Shown one piece after another: positions 33,783 to 47,293 of a stretch of DNA of 64,000 nucleotides (positions are counted from its first letter, which is position 1; each line of letters opens with the position of its first letter). This DNA is from Dehalococcoides mccartyi (lineage in GTDB: Bacteria > Chloroflexota > Dehalococcoidia > GIF9 > DYGU01). The stretch spans positions 29,388-93,387 of the forward strand of contig DYGU01000002.1 in the NCBI GenBank assembly GCA_020724525.1, in the 5' to 3' direction. Position numbers and translations under genes: made by a program. The notes beneath the pieces are model-generated. The model did no database searches, was not told the DNA's origin, and worked only from the letters and a program-made list of their open reading frames with translations.

Positions 33783-34688
33783 GTGGCAACTACCCCAGGC
33801 ATCCGCCTTGACAAATACTTAGCTGAGACATGTTCCGGGCTTTCCCGTTCTTACCTTCAAAAACTAATTCAACAAGGTTATATTTTAGTTCAGGACAAAT
33901 GGGCAAAACCAAGTCAGAAGCTCCAGGTTGGGGACAGGATAACTATTACTTTACCACCGCCAGTTACTTCATTAGTTGCTGAGCCTATTCCGGTAACTAT
34001 TATCTATGAAGATAAAGACCTTTTGATTGTAGATAAGCCGGCGGGGCTAACCGTTTATCCAGCACCAGGACATCCCAGCCAAACTTTGGTCAATGCTCTG
34101 TTAGCTTGTTGTCTTGAACTGGCTAACATAGATAACTCCTTGCGTCCGGGCATAGTCCACCGCCTGGATAAAGATACTTCAGGGCTAATGATTGTAGCTA
34201 AAAACAAAGCCGCTCAGCAAAATTTGGTTGACCAGTTCAAGTCTCGTTCTGTAGTGAAGGGTTATTTAGTCTTGGTCAAAGGTAAATTGAGTCCAGAGCG
34301 AGGGACGATTGAAGTACCTATCGGACGCCATCCTGTCTATCGAAAACGAATGGCAGTAGTTAGTGGTGGCAGAGAAGCCCGAACCCATTATCAGGTGAGG
34401 CAATATCGGGGAGACTATACCCTCGTGGAAGCTAATCCGGAGACGGGCAGGACACATCAAATACGAGTTCATTTATCAGCTATTGGTTATCCTGTAGTCG
34501 GTGATGCCACTTATGGTGTGAAGTCACCTTACCTCAGCCGGCAATTTGTCCATGCTTACTACTTAAAATTTCACTTGCCTTCTACAGGAGAATACAGGGA
34601 ATTTACCTGTGATTTGCCTTTAGACCTTCGTCGAGCTTTGGAAATGGTTTCTTCGAGATTGCTTACCAATACTTATCCACCATCCTGA
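33783..34688 (+). CDS. rluD: 23S rRNA pseudouridine synthase, RluA/RluD family
   Basis: 301 aa. S4 domain plus HRLDKDTSGL and RTHQIRVH. The last 10 codons and the stop are supplied by a MITE. Confidence 0.9.
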   Translation: MATTPGIRLDKYLAETCSGLSRSYLQKLIQQGYILVQDKWAKPSQKLQVGDRITITLPPPVTSLVAEPIPVTIIYEDKDLLIVDKPAGLTVYPAPGHPSQTLVNALLACCLELANIDNSLRPGIVHRLDKDTSGLMIVAKNKAAQQNLVDQFKSRSVVKGYLVLVKGKLSPERGTIEVPIGRHPVYRKRMAVVSGGREARTHYQVRQYRGDYTLVEANPETGRTHQIRVHLSAIGYPVVGDATYGVKSPYLSRQFVHAYYLKFHLPSTGEYREFTCDLPLDLRRALEMVSSRLLTNTYPPS

Positions 34689-34764
34689 ACAAAGTGGAGA
34701 AACCCTCACCTACCCTCTCCCTTGAAGGGAGAGGAATAAGCAGAGGGTGACAAACTAAACAATC
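34655..34764 (+). mobile_element. MITE-like element, copy B1, flanked by a perfect 9-bp duplication ggtttcttc
   Basis: Direct repeats lie at 34646-34654 and 34765-34773. The ends are gagattgcttaccaat... and ...caaactaaacaatc. The central hairpin is cctcacctaccctctccc ttgaa gggagaggaataag. Confidence 0.85.
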
Positions 34765-34840
34765 GGTTTCTTCAGGTCTTGCTTAAATCGGGGAAGTGTG
34801 TTACACTATAAATCAAAGTCAATATAGGGATGTGATAGAG

Positions 34841-35125
34841 ATGCCGGGGCTGAAAGAATTTGAGGAATCCATGGCTAAACTGAGGCGGGAGCAAATGGAA
34901 AGGGAACAGGGACTCCTGTCTCAGTTGATGAGTCAGGCTCAGACAACTAAGGATTTGAAGGTTTTTGAAGCCGACTTGGCAGCACGGAAGAATGAGATTT
35001 TATTTAAGGTCACGGCTGAGATTGAAGATTGCCAGAATGCAGTAAGGGAGGCTGAAGAGCTCACTAACCGGCTCAAAAAACACCTCATTCAATTGCAGAA
35101 TTTACATCGTATCCTTACCCGATAA
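34841..35125 (+). CDS. hypothetical coiled-coil protein
   Basis: Charged helical sequence with no motif. ATG 34841 is preferred over the upstream GTG 34796. Confidence 0.4.
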   Translation: MPGLKEFEESMAKLRREQMEREQGLLSQLMSQAQTTKDLKVFEADLAARKNEILFKVTAEIEDCQNAVREAEELTNRLKKHLIQLQNLHRILTR

Positions 35126-35330
35126 AGCTTAATCAGACATAAATTCCCTCAAAAATGGAAAATCCCTTCTTATCTCTGTGGTTGTTCAATGATTCTCCAT
35201 TATTTGCCGCATTGATTCCGCTGACATAATCAAAGCTCACAAACATTCCTTCCATCTGCCTGACCATCACCCACGGCATTATAGAAGCCCGAAAGGGAAG
35301 ATGGTAAAATGCTGCTTGAGAATAGAGCCA

Positions 35331-35765
35331 ATGGAAGTAAGGCAAAAAGAGATTGGCATAGAGTTTGCTGGTTTCTGGGCAAGGCTGTGGGCTTTCCTAA
35401 TTGATGTTGCTGTCCTCGGGTCTGCTTGGGCTATTCTCCATATTTTTATGCCAGCTCAGGTCAGTTGGATTTTCCTTGGACTTTTGGGGACTATTTATTT
35501 TATTGGTCTCTGGTGGTGGCGGGGACAGACATTGGGTAAGATGATGCTGAGAATAAAAGTGATTCGCAGTGATGGTTCTTCCCTCACTTTAAGTTATGCC
35601 CTTCTTCGCTATGGGGGAAGTATTATTTGTTGTCTCACCCTTTTTGTTGGCTTTATCTGGCTTGCCTTTGATTCTCATAAACAAGGCTGGCACGATAAAA
35701 TTGCCGATACTTATGTGATAAAGTTATCTCTAAAAGAAGCAGTGTTAGTAGGGACCTATGCCTGA
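35331..35765 (+). CDS. RDD-family membrane protein
   Basis: FAGFWARLWAFLIDV...GQTLGKMMLRIKVIRSDG...KQGWHDKIADTYV is the typical RDD architecture. Confidence 0.75.
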   Translation: MEVRQKEIGIEFAGFWARLWAFLIDVAVLGSAWAILHIFMPAQVSWIFLGLLGTIYFIGLWWWRGQTLGKMMLRIKVIRSDGSSLTLSYALLRYGGSIICCLTLFVGFIWLAFDSHKQGWHDKIADTYVIKLSLKEAVLVGTYA

Positions 35766-37224
35766 AGACATCTTGACTAAGGTAAGAGTGCGGTTTGCTC
35801 CCAGCCCTACTGGTTATCCTCATTTAGGCAACATCCGGACCGCTTTGTTTAACTGGCTTTTTGCCCGTCATTACGGGGGTAGTTTTATTTTGCGCATTGA
35901 GGATACGGATGTGGCTCGTCGGGTGGAAGGAGCTGTAGAAACCATTTTGGAAAGCCTGCGCTGGCTCAGACTTGACTGGGATGAAGGTCCTTATTTCCAG
36001 TCACAACGGCTGGAGATTTATCGGGAAATAGCTGACCAATTGCTTAAGCAAGAGTATGCCTACCTGTGCTATTGTTCTCCTCAACGTCTGGAGTCAATGC
36101 GCCGGGAGCAAATGAAGCAAAAGCAGCCACCAAAGTATGACCGTTATTGTCGAGAATTGACTCAAAAACAAAAAATTGAACTGGAGGCTACTGGTATCAT
36201 ACCCGTAGTTCGTTTTAAAACACCATTAGAAGGGCAAACTACTTTTTATGATTTAATCCGGGGTGAAGTAACCTTTGATAATAGCGTTCTGGACGATTTT
36301 GTTCTTCTCAAGTCTGATGGCTATCCTACATACCACTTAGCCAATATTACCGATGACCATCTTATGGCAATTTCCCATATTCTCCGGGCTGATGAGTGGC
36401 TGTCCAGTACTCCCCGACATGTGTTACTTTACCAGGCTTTGGGCTGGAACCCACCCCAGTTTGCTCATTTGCCCATGATTTTGGGACCCGACCGAGCCAA
36501 ATTGAGCAAACGCCATGGTGCTACCGCCCTCCTTGACTACCGGGAGCGAGGCTATCTTCCCGAAGCTATGATTAACTTTTTGAGTTTGCTCGGCTGGTCA
36601 CTGGATGACAGGACAGAGCTTTTAAGTCGTGAGGAGATAATCAAACATTTCTCTCTGGAGCGAATAAGCAAGACTGCGGCTATTTTCAATAAAGAAAAGC
36701 TGGACTGGATGAGTGGGGTCTATTTAAGGCGTTTAGCCACAGAGGAATTTACTAAACAAGCCCTCCCGTTTTTAGATAGAGATTTACCGGCTTCGGTGAA
36801 ACGCCCGTTAGATTTAGATTATGTTGGTCAAATTATGCCCCTGATTCAGGAGCGAGCCCGGACTTTTGCCGATGTATCTGAGCTAAACCAATTTTTCTTT
36901 ATTGATGAACTGGAATATAATGCCAATCTCCTTCTGAATGCTGGACTGGGAGCCGAGGTAGCCATTAAAGCGCTTCAAACTGTCTTGCCGAGGTTAGCCC
37001 TAATAAAGACCTGGGGTGCTATGGTTTTGGAGACACTTGTCCGTCCCATGGCAGAGGAACTGGGGTTAGAGACAGGCAAATTTTTCGGTCTATTAAGAGT
37101 GGCTATTACGGGGCGGACAGCGGCGCCACCCCTGTTTCAAACCATGGCTGTCTTGGGCAAAAGAAGATGCTCCAGGCGCCTCAGAGCTGCTTTAGATAAA
37201 CTATTTTCTATTGTCGGTCAATAG
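35758..37224 (+). CDS. gltX: glutamyl-tRNA synthetase
   Basis: 488 aa. Motifs RFAPSPTGYPHLGN (HIGH-like) and KLSKRHG (KMSKS). Confidence 0.95.
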   Translation: MPEDILTKVRVRFAPSPTGYPHLGNIRTALFNWLFARHYGGSFILRIEDTDVARRVEGAVETILESLRWLRLDWDEGPYFQSQRLEIYREIADQLLKQEYAYLCYCSPQRLESMRREQMKQKQPPKYDRYCRELTQKQKIELEATGIIPVVRFKTPLEGQTTFYDLIRGEVTFDNSVLDDFVLLKSDGYPTYHLANITDDHLMAISHILRADEWLSSTPRHVLLYQALGWNPPQFAHLPMILGPDRAKLSKRHGATALLDYRERGYLPEAMINFLSLLGWSLDDRTELLSREEIIKHFSLERISKTAAIFNKEKLDWMSGVYLRRLATEEFTKQALPFLDRDLPASVKRPLDLDYVGQIMPLIQERARTFADVSELNQFFFIDELEYNANLLLNAGLGAEVAIKALQTVLPRLALIKTWGAMVLETLVRPMAEELGLETGKFFGLLRVAITGRTAAPPLFQTMAVLGKRRCSRRLRAALDKLFSIVGQ

Positions 37225-37236
37225 CTGGAGGTGAAA

Positions 37237-37428
37237 ATGCCTATAGTCAGAGTTGAGATGTGGTCAGGGAGGACTGTTGCCCAGAAAGCCGAGTTAGCTC
37301 GAGTCATTACTGAAGCTGTGGTGAAAATTGCTAAAATAACCCCTGAAGAGACTATCGTTATCTTTGAGGATATTAACAGGCATAACTGGGCAAAGGCTGG
37401 GATACTGGCTTCGGAGAAAGCTAAGTAA
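37237..37428 (+). CDS. 4-oxalocrotonate tautomerase family enzyme
   Basis: The MPIVRVEMW N-terminus (catalytic Pro1) requires a start at ATG 37237. About 63 aa. Confidence 0.8.
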   Translation: MPIVRVEMWSGRTVAQKAELARVITEAVVKIAKITPEETIVIFEDINRHNWAKAGILASEKAK

Positions 37429-37523
37429 GTGGACTCAGCAATGAGATGCCTAGTCCGCCACTAGTGCCCGAAAAAGAAACGGGGGGCTTCAATCGAAGAC
37501 CCCCGCCTGGATCCTGTCAAGGT

Positions 37524-38801
37524 TTACCTCTTAATAAACCACCACTTTATTGCCCTGGCGACCAAGCCGTCGACATGGGCACTGATCATGTCCTCACCTT
37601 CCTTTGGCCCGTGGTAAGCAAAAGTAATCATTCCGGCACTATCGGTTTTGCCAGACCACTTGGTGGGGTTAGCTCCCTCGACCACAAAGGTGACCTCGGC
37701 TCCAACCACAGGCCTGCCATCCACACAGGTGACCATAGCCGTTACCTTGTGGGTGGTACACACCGGGTTTTCCGCCTTTTCAGGATGAAGGGTGATTTTG
37801 GTTGGTTTATGGACCGCGGGCACGATCTCGAGTTCAAGGATAGGGCTTTTAGCGCGGTTATTGGTCAAATCCACATCAATGTCTGGAGGCTCAAGCTCTA
37901 CCTCGGCGACTGAAATGAGTTGGATGATGCCTTCATTTGGGGGAAGGAGGTCAAAAAGGACCTCTTCCTCAGTCACCTCGCCAATATGTAGCCAATTGAT
38001 TCTCTTTGTATAGGTTGTTGACTTTTTTAGCTGCCAGGCTGTTTCCACGTCGAGAAGTCTGGGCATGCTCTTGTGCGTCCTAAAATATGTTGATTGCTCT
38101 ACCCGTTTGCCGTCCAAGGTTGCGTACTGATACTTTTTCTTAGCCATTGGGTCCTTGTTTACTGCATTAGGATGATTCACTACATGCCAGCGAATTGCTG
38201 CAGGTTCACCCTTGACGTAATGGATAGAGATTTCCGACCTCTCTTTTAGGTGCACCAATTTATCCGGCTCCCCAGCTACATGCTGAACATACAGCGCATC
38301 AATAATGGTTGACTGCATGACTGTGTACTTGCCTGGCGGTACAGGAATTCCATTGATCGTCCACGTCAAAAACTTGATGCTTGCATCTTGGGGTGGTGGC
38401 ACCCCTTTGATATTTAGCGGGTGAGTGGCCCATAAGACCCCTCCGACCAATGCCCTAATAGTATACACACCTGGAGGAAGTATCGGGACTACTGCAAGCA
38501 CTTCAAAGGCACCGCTAACGTTAGTCTTCACTTTCGTCCAGCCGGTTTCCCGGATATAGAGCGCTACTTCGACTCCCGGAGGGAATCCGGACCCTTTAAC
38601 GAGGATTGTAGCACCAGGATTTGTTACCACATGCTCATCCGGCAACCACAATTCTGCGGTTGGTCCTGGTGGACCTGCCGGTCATGGTGGTCCTGGTGGA
38701 CCCGGACAGACAAGGGCAATAATAACTAAGATGTAGAGAATTACGACCAGAATTTTTAGCCACCAATGTTGAGGCCAGTGCCACGGTATCCACTTTAGCA
38801 T
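37524..38801 (-). pseudogene. membrane-anchored surface protein (TM anchor, collagen-like GPP linker, Ig-like Big domains) interrupted by an in-frame TGA at 38684..38682
   Basis: Manual translation from ATG 38801 gives MLKWIPWHWPQHWWLKILVVILYILVIIALVCPGPPGPP*PAGPPGPTAELWLPDEHV..., in frame with ORF 37524..38651. The C-terminus (HKVTAMVTCVDGRPVVGAEVTFVVEG..DSAGMITFAY) is Big_1/invasin-like. Confidence 0.6.
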
Positions 38802-39006
38802 ACGGCACCCCCTATGGAAGCATAGTGCAAGTTCTTAATCGGCTGTTTCTTGATCTTTAGACCCTCCTTTTTCCAGTTATTTTTGGGTAGTATATCAAAC
38901 ACCGACATTTCTCCGGATTTTCTTCCTTAGGAATTTTCCCTGGCGCCTAGTATACTTTTCTTTTTTAAATTATAGCACAACTCCCCCCTGTCAATAGTTG
39001 TCGGGC

Positions 39007-39813
39007 TTATTTTTGGCATTTAGGGCAGAAATAAGTGCCGCGATTTCTTAGAGGAAGCCTCTGGATAGGAGTGTTGCAGGTAGGACAAGTCTGACCACGG
39101 CGGTGAGCTACCTGGAAACTGAAATGGGCGGTGCCTAAGCCGCCATCGGGGCGGATGTAAGTATCAACACTGGCTCCTTTATCGGTAATGGCTGACCAAA
39201 GCACTGTTTGGATAGCTTGATGTAGGTTTTTGGTTTCCTGGTGAGATAGACTATTTGTCTTCCTCAGGGGATGAATTTTAGCCCGGAACAGGGCTTCATC
39301 AGCATACATATTACCGATGCCGGCGACAAAGCCCTGGTCAAGGAGGACCGCCTTTATTGGTGACTTTCGCCCTTGAAGGCGGCTTAAAAAGGTTTCATAG
39401 ATAAAGTCTTGGGTCAGAGGTTCTGGTCCCAACTTAGGCACTACTGAATTGGCGTTCATAGTAAGCCACATTGCTGCCATGCGACGGCGGTCGATAAGAA
39501 AAAGCTGGGTATTGTTCTCAAACTCGAATAGAGCTCTCAAGTAACTCATTGGTTGATTTGATGTCAGGAGCAGAGCCCCTGCCATTTTGAGGTGAAGAAC
39601 AAGGGATTCTCCGCCGGAAAGGGGAAAAATTAGATATTTTCCCCGGCGCTGGATATCTTCTATCTTCTGTCCAACCAGCTTCTGGCAAAATTCCTCTACC
39701 GAAGGCTGACGGACAACTTTGGCATCAAAGATAGTTACTCCCGTGAAGCGTTTGCCCACTAATACTGGCAAAAGCTCATTTTTTATAGTTTCAACTTCAG
39801 GAAGCTCAGGCAT
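39007..39813 (-). CDS. mutM: formamidopyrimidine-DNA glycosylase
   Basis: MPELPEVE N-terminus (catalytic Pro2) sets the start at 39813. C-terminal zinc finger is CPTC...CPKC. Confidence 0.9.
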   Translation of the reverse strand: MPELPEVETIKNELLPVLVGKRFTGVTIFDAKVVRQPSVEEFCQKLVGQKIEDIQRRGKYLIFPLSGGESLVLHLKMAGALLLTSNQPMSYLRALFEFENNTQLFLIDRRRMAAMWLTMNANSVVPKLGPEPLTQDFIYETFLSRLQGRKSPIKAVLLDQGFVAGIGNMYADEALFRAKIHPLRKTNSLSHQETKNLHQAIQTVLWSAITDKGASVDTYIRPDGGLGTAHFSFQVAHRRGQTCPTCNTPIQRLPLRNRGTYFCPKCQK

Positions 39814-39902
39814 AGTTCTTCTGGTCGTTGACAGAGTTTGCTTTCTAAGTATCAAAGCGCTGGCATTTCATGGCTGAAAAAAACATTGTTTTACCGTCTA
39901 CA

Positions 39903-40193
39903 TCACTGCCCTTTAGACAAGTTCCGTTTATCGTGTAGAATTGCCCAAACATATGCTGGCCCTCGGACAATCTTATTAATGTCTGCAGGTCGGCAGGGGA
40001 CCCTTTGATAGGCTTTTTCAAAATCTGTTTTTGGTATTCTATAGTCAGTCCGGCTTGGGTAAACACCATTTCCTTCAACTCTATATGTAAACTCCAAGCC
40101 CGTTTTTGTATGAAAAATTTCCCCGGTATGAGTAACAATTCGTCCCCATACTTCTTCAAATGACGCAGTAGTCAAACCACCCCCTCTAAGCAA
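39903..40193 (-). CDS. hypothetical small protein at the edge of the restriction-modification island
   Basis: 96 aa with a non-ATG start (TTG). Sequence is FHTKTGLEFTYRVEGNGVYPSRTDYRIPKTDFEKAY...RGPAYVWAILHD. No family recognised. Confidence 0.5.
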   Translation of the reverse strand: MLRGGGLTTASFEEVWGRIVTHTGEIFHTKTGLEFTYRVEGNGVYPSRTDYRIPKTDFEKAYQRVPCRPADINKIVRGPAYVWAILHDKRNLSKGQ

Positions 40194-40254
40194 AACTCTC
40201 TAACGATTTTAGCTAACAATCTCAGGCACTGCTAGTCTGAAAACAACAGTAGTA

Positions 40255-40887
40255 TTACCTCTTCTCCAGTCTTTCAATTTCGTTTCTGATTTCTTCGATT
40301 ACCTCTGGATTATAGATTACCTTTCTTTTCCCTTCCTTCACCGAAATAATATAAAATACTTTACCACCATATTTGGCGGTGAACTTTTCATGTGTCTTTT
40401 TCTGAAACTCTAATTCGTTGATGATTTGAGTAATGTAAGCATATCCTGCAGGTTTGATTTGGAGACCTATATATTTACCCTTTACCTTAATGAAGAAGTC
40501 TATATTATATTTTCTATCCCACTCGTCTGGTGCCGGTTCTATTTTAATACCCAATGCCTGCTGTAACTGTCCGTAAATAGTTTGTATTTCAGACTGATAC
40601 CCGTCGTAGGTTCTGTTAATTACGAGACCGATAACAAAATCAATGCAATCTTGCTCAGTAATACTTTCAATTTCAGCTTGACATACTTCTGTTACCTTTA
40701 CGTATAGCCTTTTTCCAAGTCCTTCCAAATGCTTTTTAGGATAGACATTTTTATAATAGTATTCTTCCCATTCTTTTAGTGATTTAGGAGCGCATTTTCT
40801 TATTTCTTCTGAGACTTTACCAACATTCCTGGGTCTATTGAACTGCCAACGCATATTTGCCTGGTTTATAATCCATTCTTTAGACAT
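40255..40887 (-). CDS. putative type II restriction endonuclease (PD-(D/E)xK-like; possibly MjaI-like)
   Basis: 210 aa. The NIDFFIKVKGKYIGLQIKP segment fits a D...(E/Q)xK nuclease core. It sits next to a DNA methyltransferase. The family assignment is from memory only. Confidence 0.5.
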   Translation of the reverse strand: MSKEWIINQANMRWQFNRPRNVGKVSEEIRKCAPKSLKEWEEYYYKNVYPKKHLEGLGKRLYVKVTEVCQAEIESITEQDCIDFVIGLVINRTYDGYQSEIQTIYGQLQQALGIKIEPAPDEWDRKYNIDFFIKVKGKYIGLQIKPAGYAYITQIINELEFQKKTHEKFTAKYGGKVFYIISVKEGKRKVIYNPEVIEEIRNEIERLEKR

Positions 40888-40910
40888 TGCTTCCTCGTTT
40901 CAAATCTGTC

Positions 40911-41415
40911 TTAGAATCTTTCGAACATCCTTAAGATTTCTTTCGCCTCTTCCACGCTACCTTTTGGTGGCTGTTCCTTTTGAGGTAGATGTAGGAGACC
41001 AAATTTTAACTGAAATCTGAGGCAATCCATAATCGATAACCCCCAAATTACAGTAACGTCACAATTCCCACAATCTCCGTTACACCTCTCAATGATAGCA
41101 AGAAGTTCGTCTTGGTGGCTGTTCCTTTTGAGGTAGATGTAGGAGACCAAATTTTAACTGAAATCTGAGGCAATCCATAATCGATAACCCCCAAATTACA
41201 GTAACGTCACAATTCCCACAATCTCCGTTACACCTCTCAATGATAGCAAGAAGTTCGTCTGTGCTCTCATAGCAGACTTCTTCATAAGGAGCCAGAGGAG
41301 TAAGTTTGCCTTTATAATATGAATCTTCGTCTCCAGCAAGAGTAACCCAGCCTTCTCCCTCCCCTAAATCAAACGCCTTTCGACACCTTGCACAAACCCA
41401 TTTTGATTCATTCAT
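40911..41415 (-). pseudogene. Cys-rich small protein gene between R and M genes, frameshifted by a 148-bp tandem duplication
   Basis: ORFs 41089..41415 and 40911..41150 share the identical segment DELLAIIERCNGDCGNCDVTVIWGLSIMDCLRFQLKFGLLHLPQKEQPP. Removing one repeat restores a single ORF of about 118 aa. Confidence 0.65.
40964..41259. repeat. perfect tandem direct duplication, 2 x 148 bp
   Basis: A base-by-base comparison at offset 148 shows 40964-41111 equal to 41112-41259, plus one extra matching base at 41260. The match breaks at 40963/41111 and 41113/41261. Confidence 0.95.
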
Positions 41416-41419
41416 CTTT

Positions 41420-42706
41420 TTACCCTCCTTTATATTCTAAGAATCTTGACTTATATTTATAATCGAAAGAGGTATTCACATTGACCAAACCAGTTTTAAT
41501 CAAATGGACATTTAGAAAGGTCTTGTTCCACAAATAAAGATAGCAGAGTAAGTTGTTTTTCTCATCGTATTTTATGGTGTCAAACCTTAGGAATACCTTT
41601 TGTCCACGAGTTTTCTCCCGCAAAAATTGAATTGCCTCTCTTTTCTTTTCCGGTCTCTCTTTCACGCCCAGTAACCTGATTCTTAATCCATTATTTAAAA
41701 CCAACATTTCCGGGGAGATTATTTCTTTCACCATATAATATGTTTCTCTCTCAGAACGAGAACTATCTATTCTTGAACCAAATCTCAATTTTTTGGGATC
41801 AACTTTTTTATCGAATCTTATCGGGTCTTTGAAAATGTAAGGCAGTTTCTTAATTTCTTCCTTAAAATCTTTCTTCGGATCCTCTTGCTTAATTATTTCA
41901 CAAGCTGCATCTTGAAAAAGAGTGCCTTGTTTCAGTCTAAGTTTTTCTCTTATGACCGGCAGAAAGTTTTCATTTATTTCGTATCCAATGGAATTTCTAT
42001 TTAGATTTTTAGCAGATAAAGAGGTTGTGCCACTTCCAAGAAACGGATCCAGAACAGTATCACCAACAAAACTGAACATTTTGATTAGACGTCTTGGCAG
42101 TTCTTCAGGGAACATTGCCAGATGTTTATCTTGTTTTTCCCCAGGAAAATCCCAATGTCCTGTAAAATATTGATTCCATTCTTCCTCTGTTAGTTTTGAT
42201 TGTTCCTTGATTTCTCTGCTAACCTTTGGAGGGTTTCCATATTTCTTAAAGATTAAAATGAATTCGTAATCCAGTTTAAGGATTCCGCTTCGTGGGTAGG
42301 GGAAAGAACCCATCACGGTAGCGCCGCCAGTGGTATGGCAAGTAGTGACTTTCTGCCAGATGATGGCTCCCATGTAATCAAAGCCAGCACTTTCACAAAA
42401 CTTAATTATCTCTGTTCTTATAGGGATGACCTTGTACCTGCCATAATAGACAGAACGAGCAAATTGGTCGCCAATGTTGATACATAATCGACAGCCTTTG
42501 TGTAGAACTCTATGGCATTCCTGCCACACCAAGTTGAGGTTGTTAATATATTCCTCATAAGTGTCGTTAAAACCTATCTGTTTGCCATTTCCATAGTCCT
42601 TCAATTGCCAGTAAGGTGGGGAGGTGATAATAAGATCGACAGATTCATCGGGGACTTCTTTCATCCATCTTGAATCGCCGATGATTATTTTATGTATGAT
42701 CTTCAT
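41420..42706 (-). CDS. beta-class DNA methyltransferase (SPPY motif, probably N4-cytosine or N6-adenine) fused to a C-terminal SNase/thermonuclease-like OB-fold domain
   Basis: 428 aa. Motif IV (IITSPPYW) lies N-terminal to motif I (VLDPFLGSGTTSLSA). The C-terminal ~110 aa (LRIRLLGVKERPEKKREAIQFL...LLCYLYLWNKTFLNVHLIKTGLV) resemble SNase. Confidence 0.88.
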   Translation of the reverse strand: MKIIHKIIIGDSRWMKEVPDESVDLIITSPPYWQLKDYGNGKQIGFNDTYEEYINNLNLVWQECHRVLHKGCRLCINIGDQFARSVYYGRYKVIPIRTEIIKFCESAGFDYMGAIIWQKVTTCHTTGGATVMGSFPYPRSGILKLDYEFILIFKKYGNPPKVSREIKEQSKLTEEEWNQYFTGHWDFPGEKQDKHLAMFPEELPRRLIKMFSFVGDTVLDPFLGSGTTSLSAKNLNRNSIGYEINENFLPVIREKLRLKQGTLFQDAACEIIKQEDPKKDFKEEIKKLPYIFKDPIRFDKKVDPKKLRFGSRIDSSRSERETYYMVKEIISPEMLVLNNGLRIRLLGVKERPEKKREAIQFLREKTRGQKVFLRFDTIKYDEKNNLLCYLYLWNKTFLNVHLIKTGLVNVNTSFDYKYKSRFLEYKGG

Positions 42707-43020
42707 ATTTCTATGCCTTTAGTCTTGACTTCATCGCCAATAAAAGTGCCGCTATCTTTAGAAGAAAATTCCTCCTCGGTGTAGCCTAAGGCTTCAATTG
42801 GCTCCATCATCTTAGCGGCAGCTCTTCCAAGTATTTGCAATCTTTCTATTAAGTTCATTTCCTTGAAATTACCCGAGATGACCACCAAATCGATATCACT
42901 GTATTCTTTTGCTTTACCAGAGGAGTGGGAACCAAATAGAATAACTCTCTCAACCTGAATGCCTAAAGCAGATAAAGCATCTTTATATTTTTCTACGATG
43001 TGATAGAGTCTCGGATCCAT
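42703..43020 (-). CDS. minimal nucleotidyltransferase (MNT)
   Basis: 105 aa with the motif LFGSHSSGKAKEYSDIDL. ATGA-type overlap with the methyltransferase start. Confidence 0.85.
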   Translation of the reverse strand: MDPRLYHIVEKYKDALSALGIQVERVILFGSHSSGKAKEYSDIDLVVISGNFKEMNLIERLQILGRAAAKMMEPIEALGYTEEEFSSKDSGTFIGDEVKTKGIEI

Positions 43021-43377
43021 TGAAAAGCCTCCTTCGTCCTTTGCAAATAGTTCTCCGCAACTTCTTTATTGAAACGATGTTGAATCTCACCAATATCCTC
43101 AGGACATCTTGCAGGAATACTCACATCGCTCAGTTCACCGATAAAATCTTTTATCACCTCTCTGGGGTCAAATTGGCTTAATTTTAAAAGGTATATTAAA
43201 TTGTGAGTTTTCGGAGGGGTTTTGCCAGTGATTTCTTGAACCTTTGCCTTCAATGCCTTTTCTATAGATAAATGGCATAAAAATAGTATAAATATACCTG
43301 CCGGCGCTGAACATATACTCAGCAGTTTCCATGTCATATTGAGCTGAGTCCAGCCAGTTTTTTACTTCTTTCTTCAT
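42993..43377 (-). pseudogene. HEPN domain protein, frameshifted
   Basis: MKKEVKNWLDSAQYDMETAEYMFSAGRY (43377 downward) continues in another frame as IFILFLCHLSIEKALKAKV...IPARCPED. The shift is at about 43285-43300. Confidence 0.7.
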
Positions 43378-43407
43378 AATTCGTTTCCCTATCTCAGCAA
43401 AAAGTGT

Positions 43408-46122
43408 TTATTCCGTTTCTCCCCAGTTTTTGCCTAATTTGATGTCTACTTTTAGTGGAACGCGGAGCTTAAGGGCTCGGGGCATTATGGTGGCAATTAG
43501 CTCTTTCATTTCCGCTACTTCTTCTTCAGGCACCTCAAAAAGCAGCTCGTCGTGGATTTGGAGAATCATTTTGCTATTTAAGCCTTTTTGGCACGTCTCC
43601 CGATGAAGGTCAATCATAGCCATCTTGATGATATCAGCCGAAGTACCCTGGACGGGCATATTTATTGCCATCCTCTCGGCAGCCTCTCTTAGCTGGCGGT
43701 TAGGGGAGTTGATTTCGGGGATGAAGCGGCGGTGACCCATTACTGTCTGGACATAGCCCCGCTCTCGAGCCTGCTGTTTTGTGGTCTCAATATATTCTTT
43801 GACTTTGGGATATTTTTCAAAATAGGAATTGATGAACTGACTGGCTTCTTCTCGAGTCAGATCAGTGGCTTGCTCCAAGCCATAATCACTCATTCCGTAG
43901 ATGACGCCAAAGTTAACGGTCTTGGCGACACGCCGCATTTCTGGAGTTATCTGGGAAGGTGGGATGTTGAAAACACGGGAAGCGGTAGCAGTATGAATGT
44001 CTTCGTCATTAAGGAAAGCGGCAATAAGCTCCGGGTCCTGAGACAGGTGGGCTAATACTCTAAGGTCAATCTGGGAATAATCTGCAGCCAAGAGATAACA
44101 CCCGGGTGGGGCAATAATGGCTTGCCTTATCTTTTTGCCTAATTCTCCGCGAATGGGGATATTTTGCAGATTTGGCTCGCTTGAGGAAAGGCGTCCAGTA
44201 GTAGTACCAGTCTGATTAAAGCTGGTGTGGAGCCTACCTGTTTTTGGGTTGATCAAGGCAGGAAAGGCATCTATGTAGGTTGATTTGAGCTTGGCTAACT
44301 GCCGGTATTCTAAGATGAGGTCAATTACCGGATGAAGTCCTCTTAGCTCTTCGAGGACTGAAGCTTCTGTGGAATAGCCAGTTTTAGTTCTTCGAGAGTG
44401 GGGTAACTTTAGTCCTTCATAAAGGACCTGGGCTAATTGCTGAGACGAGTTTATGTTGAACTTGTAACCAATGCTGTTATAGATAGCTTCTTCTAAGCTG
44501 AGCATTTGATTACCTATGCTGTGGGACATTTTTCGCAGCAATTCCACATCCAGGGCGACTCCATTTCTTTCCATAGCTACCAGTACCGGGACTAAAGGCA
44601 TTTCAACTTCGGTGAACAGTTGCCAGAGTCCTTGTTGCTTTAGTTCGGCTCCAAGGATATCTTTAAGCCTTCGGGTGATATCAGCATCGGCACAGGCATA
44701 ATTTGCTGCCTGTTCTACCTCTACTAATGCCATAGAGATTTGTTTTGGTCCACTGCCAATTAAGTCAGAGATAGGGGTCATTTCAATGCCCAGTTTGTTA
44801 AAGGCGAGGGCTTTGAGTCCCAGGGACTTTTCCCCGAGGAGGTAAGCGGCAATCATTGTATCAAAGCTCAAATTAGAAAGATGGACGCCGTATTCTGCCA
44901 GAACAGTTATATCATATTTGCCGTTATGGGCTATTTTGGTAACTTTTTGGCTTTCCAGAATGGTTTTGAGTTTGGCTATAACTCGATTAAGAGGAAGCTG
45001 GGCTGGTTGGCTTAAGCCATAATGTCCCACCGGTATGTACACGGCTTCATTGGGAAGTGGTGATAAGGCAATCCCGACCAGGTCAGCTGGCATAGGCTCC
45101 TTGGCTGAGGTCTCCACATCAACTGCGACTTCTGGGGCTTTTGATAATCGAGCTATTAGTTCTTCCAGAGCTTGGTCACTTTCTATTACTTGATAGTTTC
45201 CTTTTGGTAGGGCTTTACCTACAGAGGCAGGACTGATAATAACCTTTGTTTGGGGAAGTCTGGGTAGCAATTTGACAAATTCCAGTTCTCGGAATAGTTC
45301 GACTACTTGATTTCGGTCGTAAGCACTCACCTGACAGGCGTTAAGGTTAAGAGTTACCGGCACGTCTAAAACGCTTATTATCAGCTCTTTACTCTGGAAA
45401 GCCTGAATTTTATATTGTTTAAGTAAAACTTGCAGTTTAGTTGGGGTGACTTCCTCAATACGCTCGTAAATTTGTTCAAGGCTGCCGAATTGATGGATAA
45501 GTTTTGTGGCTGTTTTTTCACCAACACCGGGAATGCCAGGAATATTGTCGGAGGGGTCACCGATAAGGGCTTTTAAGTCGGGGAGCTGCTTTGGGTCTAA
45601 GCCGAACCTTTCATGGATGGTTGACTCATCGTAGAGAACGGTGTCGCTGAATGTCCGTCTTGGAGCTAATACTTTTACCCGGGGTGAAACGATTTGAAAG
45701 ACATCGGTATCGCCGGTAACGATTAGAGTATCTATGCCTTGCTGGCTTGCCTGCCGGCTTAAAGTTGCCAGAATGTCATCAGCCTCGTAGCCTTCAGTTT
45801 CAAGGATAGGAATTTTAAAAGCTTCAGCTAATTGCCGGACCCGTTTAAATTGGCTGACAAGCTCTTCAGGAGCTTTAGGTCGTTGAGCCTTGTAGTCTTC
45901 GAACCTCTGGTGCCTGAAGGTAAGCTTAGGACTGTCAAAAGCAATCGCCCAGTGGTTAGGCTTAAGTTCATTGAGCGCTTTTAATAAGGTAGCGGCGAAA
46001 CCATAAACAGCATTGACCATCTCACCAGTCTTAGACACAGTTAATGGGGGTAAAGCGTGGAAGGCACGGTGTACCACGGCATTGCCATCAAGGAGGAGTA
46101 ATAAGGGTTTTCTTGTATTCAT
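43408..46122 (-). CDS. polA: DNA polymerase I (5'-nuclease, 3'-5' exonuclease and polymerase domains)
   Basis: 904 aa. Motifs DYSQIDLRVLAH (A), RRVAKTVNFGVIYG (B), QIHDELLFE (C) and exo motif AVDVETS. Confidence 0.97.
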   Translation of the reverse strand: MNTRKPLLLLLDGNAVVHRAFHALPPLTVSKTGEMVNAVYGFAATLLKALNELKPNHWAIAFDSPKLTFRHQRFEDYKAQRPKAPEELVSQFKRVRQLAEAFKIPILETEGYEADDILATLSRQASQQGIDTLIVTGDTDVFQIVSPRVKVLAPRRTFSDTVLYDESTIHERFGLDPKQLPDLKALIGDPSDNIPGIPGVGEKTATKLIHQFGSLEQIYERIEEVTPTKLQVLLKQYKIQAFQSKELIISVLDVPVTLNLNACQVSAYDRNQVVELFRELEFVKLLPRLPQTKVIISPASVGKALPKGNYQVIESDQALEELIARLSKAPEVAVDVETSAKEPMPADLVGIALSPLPNEAVYIPVGHYGLSQPAQLPLNRVIAKLKTILESQKVTKIAHNGKYDITVLAEYGVHLSNLSFDTMIAAYLLGEKSLGLKALAFNKLGIEMTPISDLIGSGPKQISMALVEVEQAANYACADADITRRLKDILGAELKQQGLWQLFTEVEMPLVPVLVAMERNGVALDVELLRKMSHSIGNQMLSLEEAIYNSIGYKFNINSSQQLAQVLYEGLKLPHSRRTKTGYSTEASVLEELRGLHPVIDLILEYRQLAKLKSTYIDAFPALINPKTGRLHTSFNQTGTTTGRLSSSEPNLQNIPIRGELGKKIRQAIIAPPGCYLLAADYSQIDLRVLAHLSQDPELIAAFLNDEDIHTATASRVFNIPPSQITPEMRRVAKTVNFGVIYGMSDYGLEQATDLTREEASQFINSYFEKYPKVKEYIETTKQQARERGYVQTVMGHRRFIPEINSPNRQLREAAERMAINMPVQGTSADIIKMAMIDLHRETCQKGLNSKMILQIHDELLFEVPEEEVAEMKELIATIMPRALKLRVPLKVDIKLGKNWGETE

Positions 46123-46145
46123 TTAGGCTTTCCCTTCATTATACG

Positions 46146-46260
46146 AGAGTGTTTATTTTGTCACCCTCACCTTATCCCTCTCCCTTGAAGGGAGAGGGAT
46201 AAGGTGAGGGGTTTCTCCGCCTTGTTCAGGATGGTGGATCAGCATTGGTAAACAACCTCT
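46146..46260 (-). mobile_element. MITE-like element, copy B2, flanked by attatacg / attataca
   Basis: Aligns along its full length with 51512-51620 and, in reverse complement, with 34655-34764. The flanking 8-bp repeats at 46138-46145 and 46261-46268 differ at one position. Confidence 0.8.
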
Positions 46261-46321
46261 ATTATACAATCTTGAGCATTGTCTTGACAGTTATGCTATA
46301 CTGGAAAGCACCCAAACGGGG

Positions 46322-47293
46322 GTGTGGGTGAAAGGCAAAGACCTACTTTCAGTTGCTGACCTCAGCGCTGCTGATGTTGCGCAACTCATACGGAAAGCTT
46401 TAGACGGGAAGCAAAAGAGAGTTTCTGCCTTGCTTTCGGGGAAGGCTTTTGCCCTTGTGTTTGAGAAACCTTCTTTACGAACTCGAGTCAGTTTTGAGCT
46501 GGCTATTCATCAACTCGGTGGCTACGCCTTTTATTTGTCTCCGGATGAAGTAGGTTTTGGGAAGCGAGAGCCGGTCTCCGATGTAGCTCGGGTGCTCAGT
46601 CGTTACGTTGATGGTATTATAGCTCGCACCTTTTCTCACCATACTTTGGAGACTTTTGCCGAACACGCTACGGTACCGGTGATTAATGCTCTTTCCGACC
46701 TGGAGCACCCTTGCCAGGCTTTATCCGACCTCCTTACCATTTACGAAAAGCACCAGAAACTTCGCGGTTTAACTTTAGCTTTTATTGGTGACGGTAATAA
46801 TGTAGCTCATAGTCTGCTCTTAGCCGCTTCCCTTGCTGGACTGAATTTTTATATTGCCTCTCCACCAGGTTATCAGGTTAGGGAGGAGGTTCTAAAGCTC
46901 GGTAAGGAATTTGCTAAAGATAGTGGCAGTCAAATTTGGTTAACTCACGAGCCGCGTCGGGTAGTGAAAGACGTTGATATAGTCTATACTGATGTCTGGA
47001 CAAGTATGGGGCAGGAAGCAGAAGCAGAGCGGCGACGAATTGCTTTCGCTGGCTATCAAGTAGATGATGAGTTATTGGCTTTGGCTAAGAAAGATGTTCT
47101 TCTAATGCATCCTATGCCAGCCCACTGTGGGGAGGAAATCGCTCCGGGGCTTCTGGACAGTCCGGCTTCTGTAGTCTTTGACCAGGCTGAGAACAGGCTT
47201 CATCTCCAGAAGACGCTGCTGGCTGAAATATTTGGTAACTCCGAGCTGGGTAAAGAAAAGTCAGTCCTTTCCGGGATTACTACGAGCGGATAA
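46322..47293 (+). CDS. argF: ornithine carbamoyltransferase
   Basis: 323 aa. Motifs SLRTRVSFE, HPCQALSD and DVWTSMGQE. GTG start. Confidence 0.88.
   Translation: MWVKGKDLLSVADLSAADVAQLIRKALDGKQKRVSALLSGKAFALVFEKPSLRTRVSFELAIHQLGGYAFYLSPDEVGFGKREPVSDVARVLSRYVDGIIARTFSHHTLETFAEHATVPVINALSDLEHPCQALSDLLTIYEKHQKLRGLTLAFIGDGNNVAHSLLLAASLAGLNFYIASPPGYQVREEVLKLGKEFAKDSGSQIWLTHEPRRVVKDVDIVYTDVWTSMGQEAEAERRRIAFAGYQVDDELLALAKKDVLLMHPMPAHCGEEIAPGLLDSPASVVFDQAENRLHLQKTLLAEIFGNSELGKEKSVLSGITTSG

Follow-up and report, generated by a model that had tools for sequence, protein, structure and literature searches.

An uncultured subsurface Dehalococcoidia clone carries a perfect 148-bp tandem duplication inside a small cysteine-rich gene, here called X, that lies between the methyltransferase gene (M) and the restriction endonuclease gene (R) of a MjaI-type restriction–modification operon with CTAG as its predicted target. 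We think that the duplication is probably a recent spontaneous loss-of-function mutation in an accessory gene, one that can be precisely reverted and that does not serve as a dedicated switch. The host is an uncultured member of the Dehalococcoidia, and its GltX has its best named relatives at 74% identity. All coordinates refer to the window, the whole 64,000-nucleotide stretch of DNA that was analysed. The features of the duplicated region are:

40964..41111, minus strand: copy 1 of the unit, the downstream copy in the orientation of the gene
41112..41259, minus strand: copy 2 of the unit, the upstream copy, encoding X residues 53–101 in the native frame
41083..41141, no strand: sequence spanning the novel junction between 41111 and 41112, recovered as a separate 59-nt unitig with the duplicated allele only
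41089..41415, minus strand: truncated X open reading frame (ORF) of 108 aa, which shifts frame at the junction and stops at 41089–41091 (ORF list)
40911..41150, minus strand: second ORF of 79 aa with a TTG start, which re-reads residues 53–118 in the native frame (ORF list)
40956..40971, plus strand: small hairpin GCTACC-TTTT-GGTGGC, found in a scan for terminator-like structures

Base-by-base comparison found 40964–41111 and 41112–41259 identical without a mismatch, as the initial annotation had stated, and Tandem Repeats Finder reported the same structure at 40964–41260 (period 148, 2.0 copies, 100% matches, score 594). A perfect repeat of 148 bp cannot originate by chance. The T at 41260 equals the T at 41112, which extends the periodicity by one base past the repeat and leaves the two breakpoints with just 1 nt of microhomology. 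The left breakpoint, between 40963 and 40964, sits in the loop of the 40956..40971 hairpin. A promoter scan returned 15 sites compared with 9.1 ± 3.2 in shuffled sequences, an excess that is not convincing; one promoter-like plus-strand site falls inside the 148-bp unit and is hence also duplicated. An Rfam scan of 34000–47000 returned no known RNA.

The effect on the reading frame is that claimed for the gene starting at 41415, and the ORF list bears out both its new stop and the second, native-frame ORF. Starting with the first base of codon 53, the unit spans 49 codons plus 1 nt, so the truncated product retains native residues 1–101 and then gains RRTSCYH, seven foreign residues in place of the native last 17 (the translation ends in ...KEQPPRRTSCYH and a stop). 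All cysteine positions are retained in this product and the conserved C-terminal helix is gone. Copy 1 is out of frame in the truncated ORF and is read in the native frame only through the 79-aa ORF, a putative coding frame taken from the ORF list; the exact 79-aa protein was not found in a collection of 15 billion proteins. The exact 108-aa truncated protein is recorded at NCBI, on a contig of 111,851 nt. Deleting one unit in silico restores a single X ORF of 118 aa, the length proposed at the outset, and this collapsed protein is on record from JGI and from Logan. Homologues of X are nearly all 116–132 aa long, which identifies the single-copy gene as the native form. The premature X stop lies about 200 nt upstream of the start of R, compared with 23 nt for the native stop.

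Because the initial annotation had allowed for an assembly artefact, we examined the locus in public sequencing runs. Nine DNA runs carry it nearly word for word, and Logan contigs (k = 31) served as the read-out. Runs X3–X7 are ‘subsurface metagenome’ runs of studies P2 and P3 and come from three samples (the pairs X4/X6 and X5/X7 each appear to be one data set deposited twice); X1 and X2 are ‘rock metagenome’ runs of study P1. In each of X3–X7, the contig of the left flank stops at 40993, 30 nt inside the unit, that of the right flank begins at 41231, 30 nt before the unit end, the unit forms its own 149-nt contig, and a 59-nt contig, 41083–41141, consists of exactly the words that span the junction. 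Junction and flank depths were 70 and 70.6 in X3, 28.2 and 25.3 in X4, 40 and 44.6 in X5, 28.2 and 25.3 in X6, and 39.3 and 43.3 in X7, which places the junction unitig, counted in 31-mers, at 0.90–1.11 times the flank depth.

That the second copy is absent from the DNA of the organism, and was created by assembly or library preparation, is extremely improbable in the light of these depths. Short tandem loops are sometimes mis-resolved by assemblers, and the JGI assembly of the same clone (contig L010, 111,823 nt) has a single copy and is otherwise 100% identical to the window over 6.3 kb. However, neither collapse nor expansion of a loop can create the junction words, so the duplication exists in the reads, in five DNA runs from three samples; the junction also occurs in an independent RNA library, X15, and the unit stands at 1.4–2.0 times the flank depth in X3–X7. 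The unit is therefore present as two copies in most or all cells of the X3–X7 samples. The ratio of unit to flank depth, 1.43 in both X5 and X7, is below the expectation for 100% duplication, and these two runs may hold some mixture of single and duplicated alleles.

Other runs carry the single-copy state. In X1 and X2, one contig crosses a single copy unbranched, joining 40963 directly to 41112 and thus skipping 148 nt; the flanks are 100% identical to the window, with no difference besides the single copy. The contig data of X1, at 35x, contain neither the junction nor a branch, which shows that the method distinguishes the two states. With a 101-nt query that had the junction at its centre, X3–X7 matched one more indexed word than the P1 runs X1, X2 and X8 and the P4 run X9, so the P1 and P4 samples lack the junction; the junction word is confined to the P2/P3 runs and RNA run X15. 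For X9, the contigs leave the allele unassignable, and the word index places this run with the single-copy runs. No mixture of alleles within a sample was detectable in the contig data, and the samples of each study appear fixed for one state; a minor allele at less than roughly 10% would escape this read-out, in which the duplicated allele contains every k-mer of the single-copy one.

Between the populations there is one single-nucleotide polymorphism (SNP) in 20 kb, at 37486, with G in the window and X5 and T in X1, X3 and X9. This SNP does not track the duplication, as X3 combines T with the duplication and X1 combines T with the single copy. With so little divergence, both alleles belong to one clone, in agreement with the early suggestion of a very recent event. 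The single-copy allele could be ancestral or revertant. In the history that we favour it would be ancestral, still present in this clone where two other studies sampled it, and the duplication would have become fixed or nearly fixed in the population of one study.

Two further contigs touch the region. A minor strain in X1 (depth 6 compared with 36) has a contig in which 39818 is followed immediately by 41441 and which has three SNPs at 41483–41508. The joint eliminates a 96-aa ORF together with R and X, clips the ends of fpg and M, and would be a third allelic state of the locus. X3 contains a 735-nt contig at 10x (flanks 70x) that has only 40998–41027 in common with the unit before it continues into foreign sequence that is absent from the window. 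On the gene strand, a TAA right behind G90 ends X in this contig, and an ORF beginning MAKKDLGPS comes next; the contig may come from another strain or a rearranged cassette.

The duplicated allele is also represented in RNA. Two study-P2 metatranscriptome runs hold pieces of X and no other part of the restriction–modification operon: X10 has a contig over 41163–41377, in the 5′ part of X, and X15 has a 178-nt circular unitig that comprises the 148-nt unit plus 30 nt and includes the junction (share of junction-query words, 1.00). Unless the RNA libraries contained carried-over DNA, the duplicated allele is thus transcribed. The contigs give neither strand nor relative expression, and contig depth is a poor measure of expression.

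The genes on either side of X were assigned as the initial annotation had named them:

40255..40887, minus strand: R, a full-length MjaI-family type II restriction endonuclease of 210 aa (PF09568)
41420..42706, minus strand: M, an N4/N6 DNA methyltransferase of 428 aa (PF01555; PADLOC MTase_II)

Residues 4–177 of R align with positions 1–164 of the 164 in the PF09568 RE_MjaI model (E = 4.2e-46), and R also matches PADLOC REase_II (E = 1.7e-25). M matches PF01555 (E = 3.3e-45), PF00565 (E = 4e-5) and, end to end, PADLOC MTase_II (E = 1e-197), and its translation contains the motifs TSPPY and FLGSGTT. M stops 4 nt before the start codon of X, and R, which starts 23 nt past the native X stop, is preceded by its own Shine–Dalgarno-like sequence, GAGGAAG. 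Neither R nor M has excess changes at columns invariant in 12 relatives; of 63 invariant columns in R, one differs (K59 for R), a number inside the range that the other sequences give. Residues 352–420 of M form a C-terminal staphylococcal-nuclease-like (SNase/OB) domain, which is conserved in most cassettes whether X is present or absent.

The family of R makes CTAG the candidate recognition and methylation site of this system. Among the 4-nt palindromes of the window, CTAG is depleted most (22 observed compared with 168 expected; observed/expected ratio (O/E) 0.13), although CTAG depletion occurs in many bacteria for other reasons. Over the whole window, GGCC is depleted to an equal degree (O/E 0.13) and GATC to 0.34, and the three depletions suggest long exposure to several restriction specificities. 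MjaI itself is MJ0984, with the site CTAG (PMC2615612). The present system resembles MjaI and MthZI (CTAG-specific, with a PF09568 endonuclease and an m4C-type beta-class methyltransferase) in that its R covers the whole RE_MjaI model, its M has TSPPY, the two genes are neighbours in one operon, and CTAG is strongly depleted in the host DNA. It departs from that type in its co-directional M-X-R order, with a third gene between the other two, and in the SNase-like domain at the C terminus of M. We take the MjaI methylase to be the adjacent MJ0985, with no intervening gene, and the MthZI genes are presumably convergent.

Several other features of the neighbourhood were recorded. Just upstream of M, the HEPN gene of a HEPN/MNT pair (42993–43377, minus strand) is split into ORFs of 69 and 114 aa through a frameshift within a five-T run (43279–43283), and the MNT gene (42703–43020) is intact. 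No run has an indel at this T-run, and the split gene therefore looks like a real pseudogene. Between R and fpg, at 39845–40193 on the minus strand, ORFs of 104 and 96 aa overlap in different frames; JGI calls a 74-aa gene here, there is no Pfam match, and the 96-aa ORF has a faint match to PADLOC MTase_II (E = 0.035). A short REP-like element with a perfect 23-nt palindrome (CCCTCACCTTATCCCTCTCCCTT or its complement) occurs in inverted orientation at two sites in the window, 46164–46210 and 34655–34740, and stands at about eight times the genome depth in all DNA runs; fragments of it turn up in RNA contigs too, next to many different flanking sequences. Around the 5′ end of a 375-aa Big_1-like ORF (37524–38651, minus strand), at 38661–38699, is a 9-bp tandem repeat (TGGTCCTGG, 4.3 copies, 73% matches).

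X belongs to a family of its own. Searching with the collapsed protein retrieved 18 cluster representatives and a profile search 108. Eight cysteines are conserved, at positions 8, 11, 48, 51 and 62, 66, 69, 82 (six invariant, two at 99%), as are the motif WGLS-x2-DC and a C-terminal helix (S104, E106, E107, L112 and F115), and the proteins are acidic, with a median pI of 4.6 and a net charge of about −8.5. One of these cysteines has been replaced in the clone studied here:

41263..41265, minus strand: X codon 51, AGC (serine), at the second cysteine of the C48-x2-C51 pair, a position with cysteine in 96 of 96 homologues

The substitution is common to the single-copy and duplicated alleles of the clone, and no run has variant letters at this codon; a strain that is 98.7% identical (L007) has cysteine at position 51.

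X has no useful match in Pfam, NCBIfam or PADLOC, the sole match being to a radical-SAM/SPASM model at E = 0.03, far below the cut-off, and its profile gave only chance matches in the Protein Data Bank (PDB) (E of at least 0.2). An exhaustive profile search of 1.84 billion representatives returned 12 proteins, among which there was neither an annotated remote relative nor a fusion to M or R, and tblastn of X against plasmid and phage collections returned nothing. The AlphaFold2 model improved from a pLDDT of 54.6 with 19 sequences to 80.6 with 96, and has short strands at residues 5–7 and 14–16 and helices at 31–34, 49–62, 71–74, 79–88 and 105–116. Foldseek searches of the latter model against the PDB and BFVD found nothing better than E = 0.4, with only a vague resemblance to zinc-binding modules.

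X has a constant genomic setting. The order M-X-R holds in all X loci fetched (L001–L028) that have enough flanking sequence, with the exception of L014, which is rearranged. The hosts include Ignavibacteria, Planctomycetota, Gemmatimonadota, ANME-1/Methanophagales and Methanosarcinales metagenome-assembled genomes, Syntrophales and Zixibacteria are named for two X proteins, and the genes that flank M-X-R are different and unrelated from locus to locus. Cassettes with X are tightly chained: the M stop overlaps or abuts the X start, and the X stop falls 16–31 nt before the R start. Pairwise identity of X follows that of M (Mantel r = 0.59, p = 2e-4) more than that of R (r = 0.35, p = 0.01), which may reflect physical linkage only. 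Our best guess, made with low confidence, is that X is a metal-binding protein partner that modulates the balance of M and R. Two X loci carry signs of further decay or rearrangement in these cassettes: in L025 (4374–5005), R is split into ORFs of 132 and 76 aa, and in L014 a fragment of R precedes X.

Most close relatives of this operon do without X. We searched metagenome contigs for the R family, kept the 80 closest loci (68–90% identity to R of the window) and judged the presence of X in the 70 with enough upstream sequence. X is absent from 62 of these, intact in seven and frameshifted in one. Where M was found upstream, it usually ends within about 20 nt of R; a few close cassettes have a longer gap between M and R, or M was not found. 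Cassettes with and without X are interleaved in M and R similarity. One such pair, L023 (with X) and L048 (without), has protein identities of 91% for M and 98% for R, with 447 nt compared with 54 nt from the last ~20 codons of M to the start of R.

X is also independently broken in two other lineages. In L028/L040 it is frameshifted at W75/G76, on 11 contigs, and in L027 it has an internal deletion of about 135 nt; M is full length in both, and R is full or nearly full length beside the broken gene. The slot between M and R holds other ORFs in some loci, of 251 aa in L032/L034 (1713–2468) and 362 aa in L073 (1408–2496), neither with a Pfam match, and in L084 (1111–2199) M is truncated and the 362-aa ORF behind it has a weak PD-(D/E)XK match; the M–R junction appears to be an insertion hot spot. 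Candidate roles for X were also considered. An obligatory subunit of R was rejected because most close cassettes lack X, and an essential inhibitor of R or an essential subunit of M is disfavoured, since knock-outs of X are tolerated with M and R retained.

As X is optional, has been repeatedly lost or broken, and had already acquired C51S in this clone, loss of function under relaxed constraint is the best reading of the duplication. The unit would have been duplicated across 1 nt of microhomology, through replication slippage or illegitimate recombination, possibly promoted by the hairpin at the left breakpoint. The resulting frame shift after residue 101 removes the conserved C-terminal helix and adds the seven foreign residues, and translation ends about 200 nt upstream of R instead of 23 nt, which may lower R expression. 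The mutation would have hit a gene under relaxed constraint, as part of the ordinary decay and turnover of restriction–modification cassettes. That the loss had little consequence is an inference from the optional distribution of X; with all cysteine positions kept, the truncated protein might retain part of its function, and fixation in one population could have come about through selection (for example, for lower restriction) instead of drift.

Selection of this kind can be stated as an explanation in its own right: the duplication was fixed since lower expression of R relieves the cost of self-restriction and M is kept, either through polarity and lost translational coupling once translation ends about 200 nt upstream of R, or through the loss of X itself. 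The tight chaining of cassettes that contain X would provide the route, three P2 samples carry the duplicated allele at ~100%, the minor strain of X1 drops R and X outright, and the neighbouring HEPN defence gene is frameshifted too. We consider selected attenuation unlikely all the same, given that the RNA contigs cover X alone, and not R or M, that R has a Shine–Dalgarno-like sequence of its own, and that drift is also expected to fix alleles in a clonal, slow-growing subsurface population.

The initial annotation had proposed a reversible on/off switch, and of this the reversibility stands in principle. Perfect tandem repeats such as this one of 148 bp tend by their nature to lose a copy precisely, through unequal recombination or slippage, and the mutation is thus revertible. 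In a phase-variation-like scheme, duplication and excision would toggle X and hence the level of restriction, through X or through translational polarity, and the clone would hold R-proficient and R-attenuated subpopulations. The occurrence of both states in one clone, the position of X immediately upstream of R in the same operon and the capsule genes discussed below are compatible with such a scheme. Yet single-copy X offers no predisposing repeat, only 1 nt of microhomology, and no direct repeat of at least 16 nt was found in X ± 100 nt in 20 related loci, nor has the duplication recurred in them. The samples of each study are apparently fixed for one state, most close cassettes lack X, a conserved cysteine has been lost, and duplication should be far less frequent than reversion, so that the two directions would not be symmetrical. 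A dedicated switch is thus unsupported, and we hold a phase-variation-like role to be quite unlikely.

In the pneumococcal capsule genes cap3A, cap8E and tts, spontaneous tandem duplications make the capsule disappear reversibly (Waite et al. 2001, 2003, as cited in PMC4243769). X resembles these genes in that a perfect head-to-tail duplication within the ORF truncates or frameshifts the gene and inactivates it with no prior repeat tract, the single-copy form is intact, precise excision restores the wild type, and both alleles occur within one lineage. The pneumococcal case differs in that switching was shown by experiment and at high frequency, with many different duplications in one gene, whereas here there is one duplication, each population is fixed for one state and reversion would be possible in principle. 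The target is also different, being an optional accessory gene of a restriction–modification operon and not a capsule gene.

The phase-variable hsdS, mod and res genes of Haemophilus, Neisseria and Helicobacter carry evolved homopolymer or short-unit tracts that change at 1e-2 to 1e-5 per generation in both directions. X shares with them a frameshifting change in repeat number and alternative alleles in one species; unlike them, it has a single 148-bp unit, and there is no tract in wild-type X or its relatives. Controller (C) proteins such as C.PvuII, C.BamHI, C.AhdI and C.Esp1396I are basic, Xre-type helix-turn-helix binders of C-boxes. X is likewise small and encoded directly upstream of R in the same operon, and by analogy its loss would be expected to alter R expression. 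In contrast to C proteins, X is acidic and has no helix-turn-helix match, which argues against a DNA binder of that type; it also has eight conserved cysteines in two groups of four, lacks a relative in sequence or fold and is missing from most close cassettes.

A bolder combination of these ideas is that X is a new kind of control or partner protein for restriction–modification, acidic, without a helix-turn-helix and with two metal sites, and that the duplication is a natural and precisely reversible OFF state of restriction; X would then set R activity through protein contacts or translational coupling. This combination strikes us as very unlikely. If it were true, a slow-growing subsurface Dehalococcoidia clone would alternate between restricting and DNA-permissive states.

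Under the loss-of-function reading, the duplication is a fresh instance of an event type that is already known. It is also a verified structural polymorphism in an uncultured subsurface bacterium, of a kind that junction k-mer analysis of public runs can separate from assembly error, and it illustrates that assemblies of one clone can disagree, with one copy in the JGI contig and two in the NCBI contig. The family to which X belongs, unannotated, with eight conserved cysteines and no fold relative, is possibly a by-product of more lasting use. All copies found lie between M and R of CTAG-type cassettes in bacterial and archaeal phyla, where X is optional and has been lost repeatedly, and the two natural alleles, together with closely related cassettes with and without X, provide material for probing the role of a third gene in a type II restriction–modification operon.
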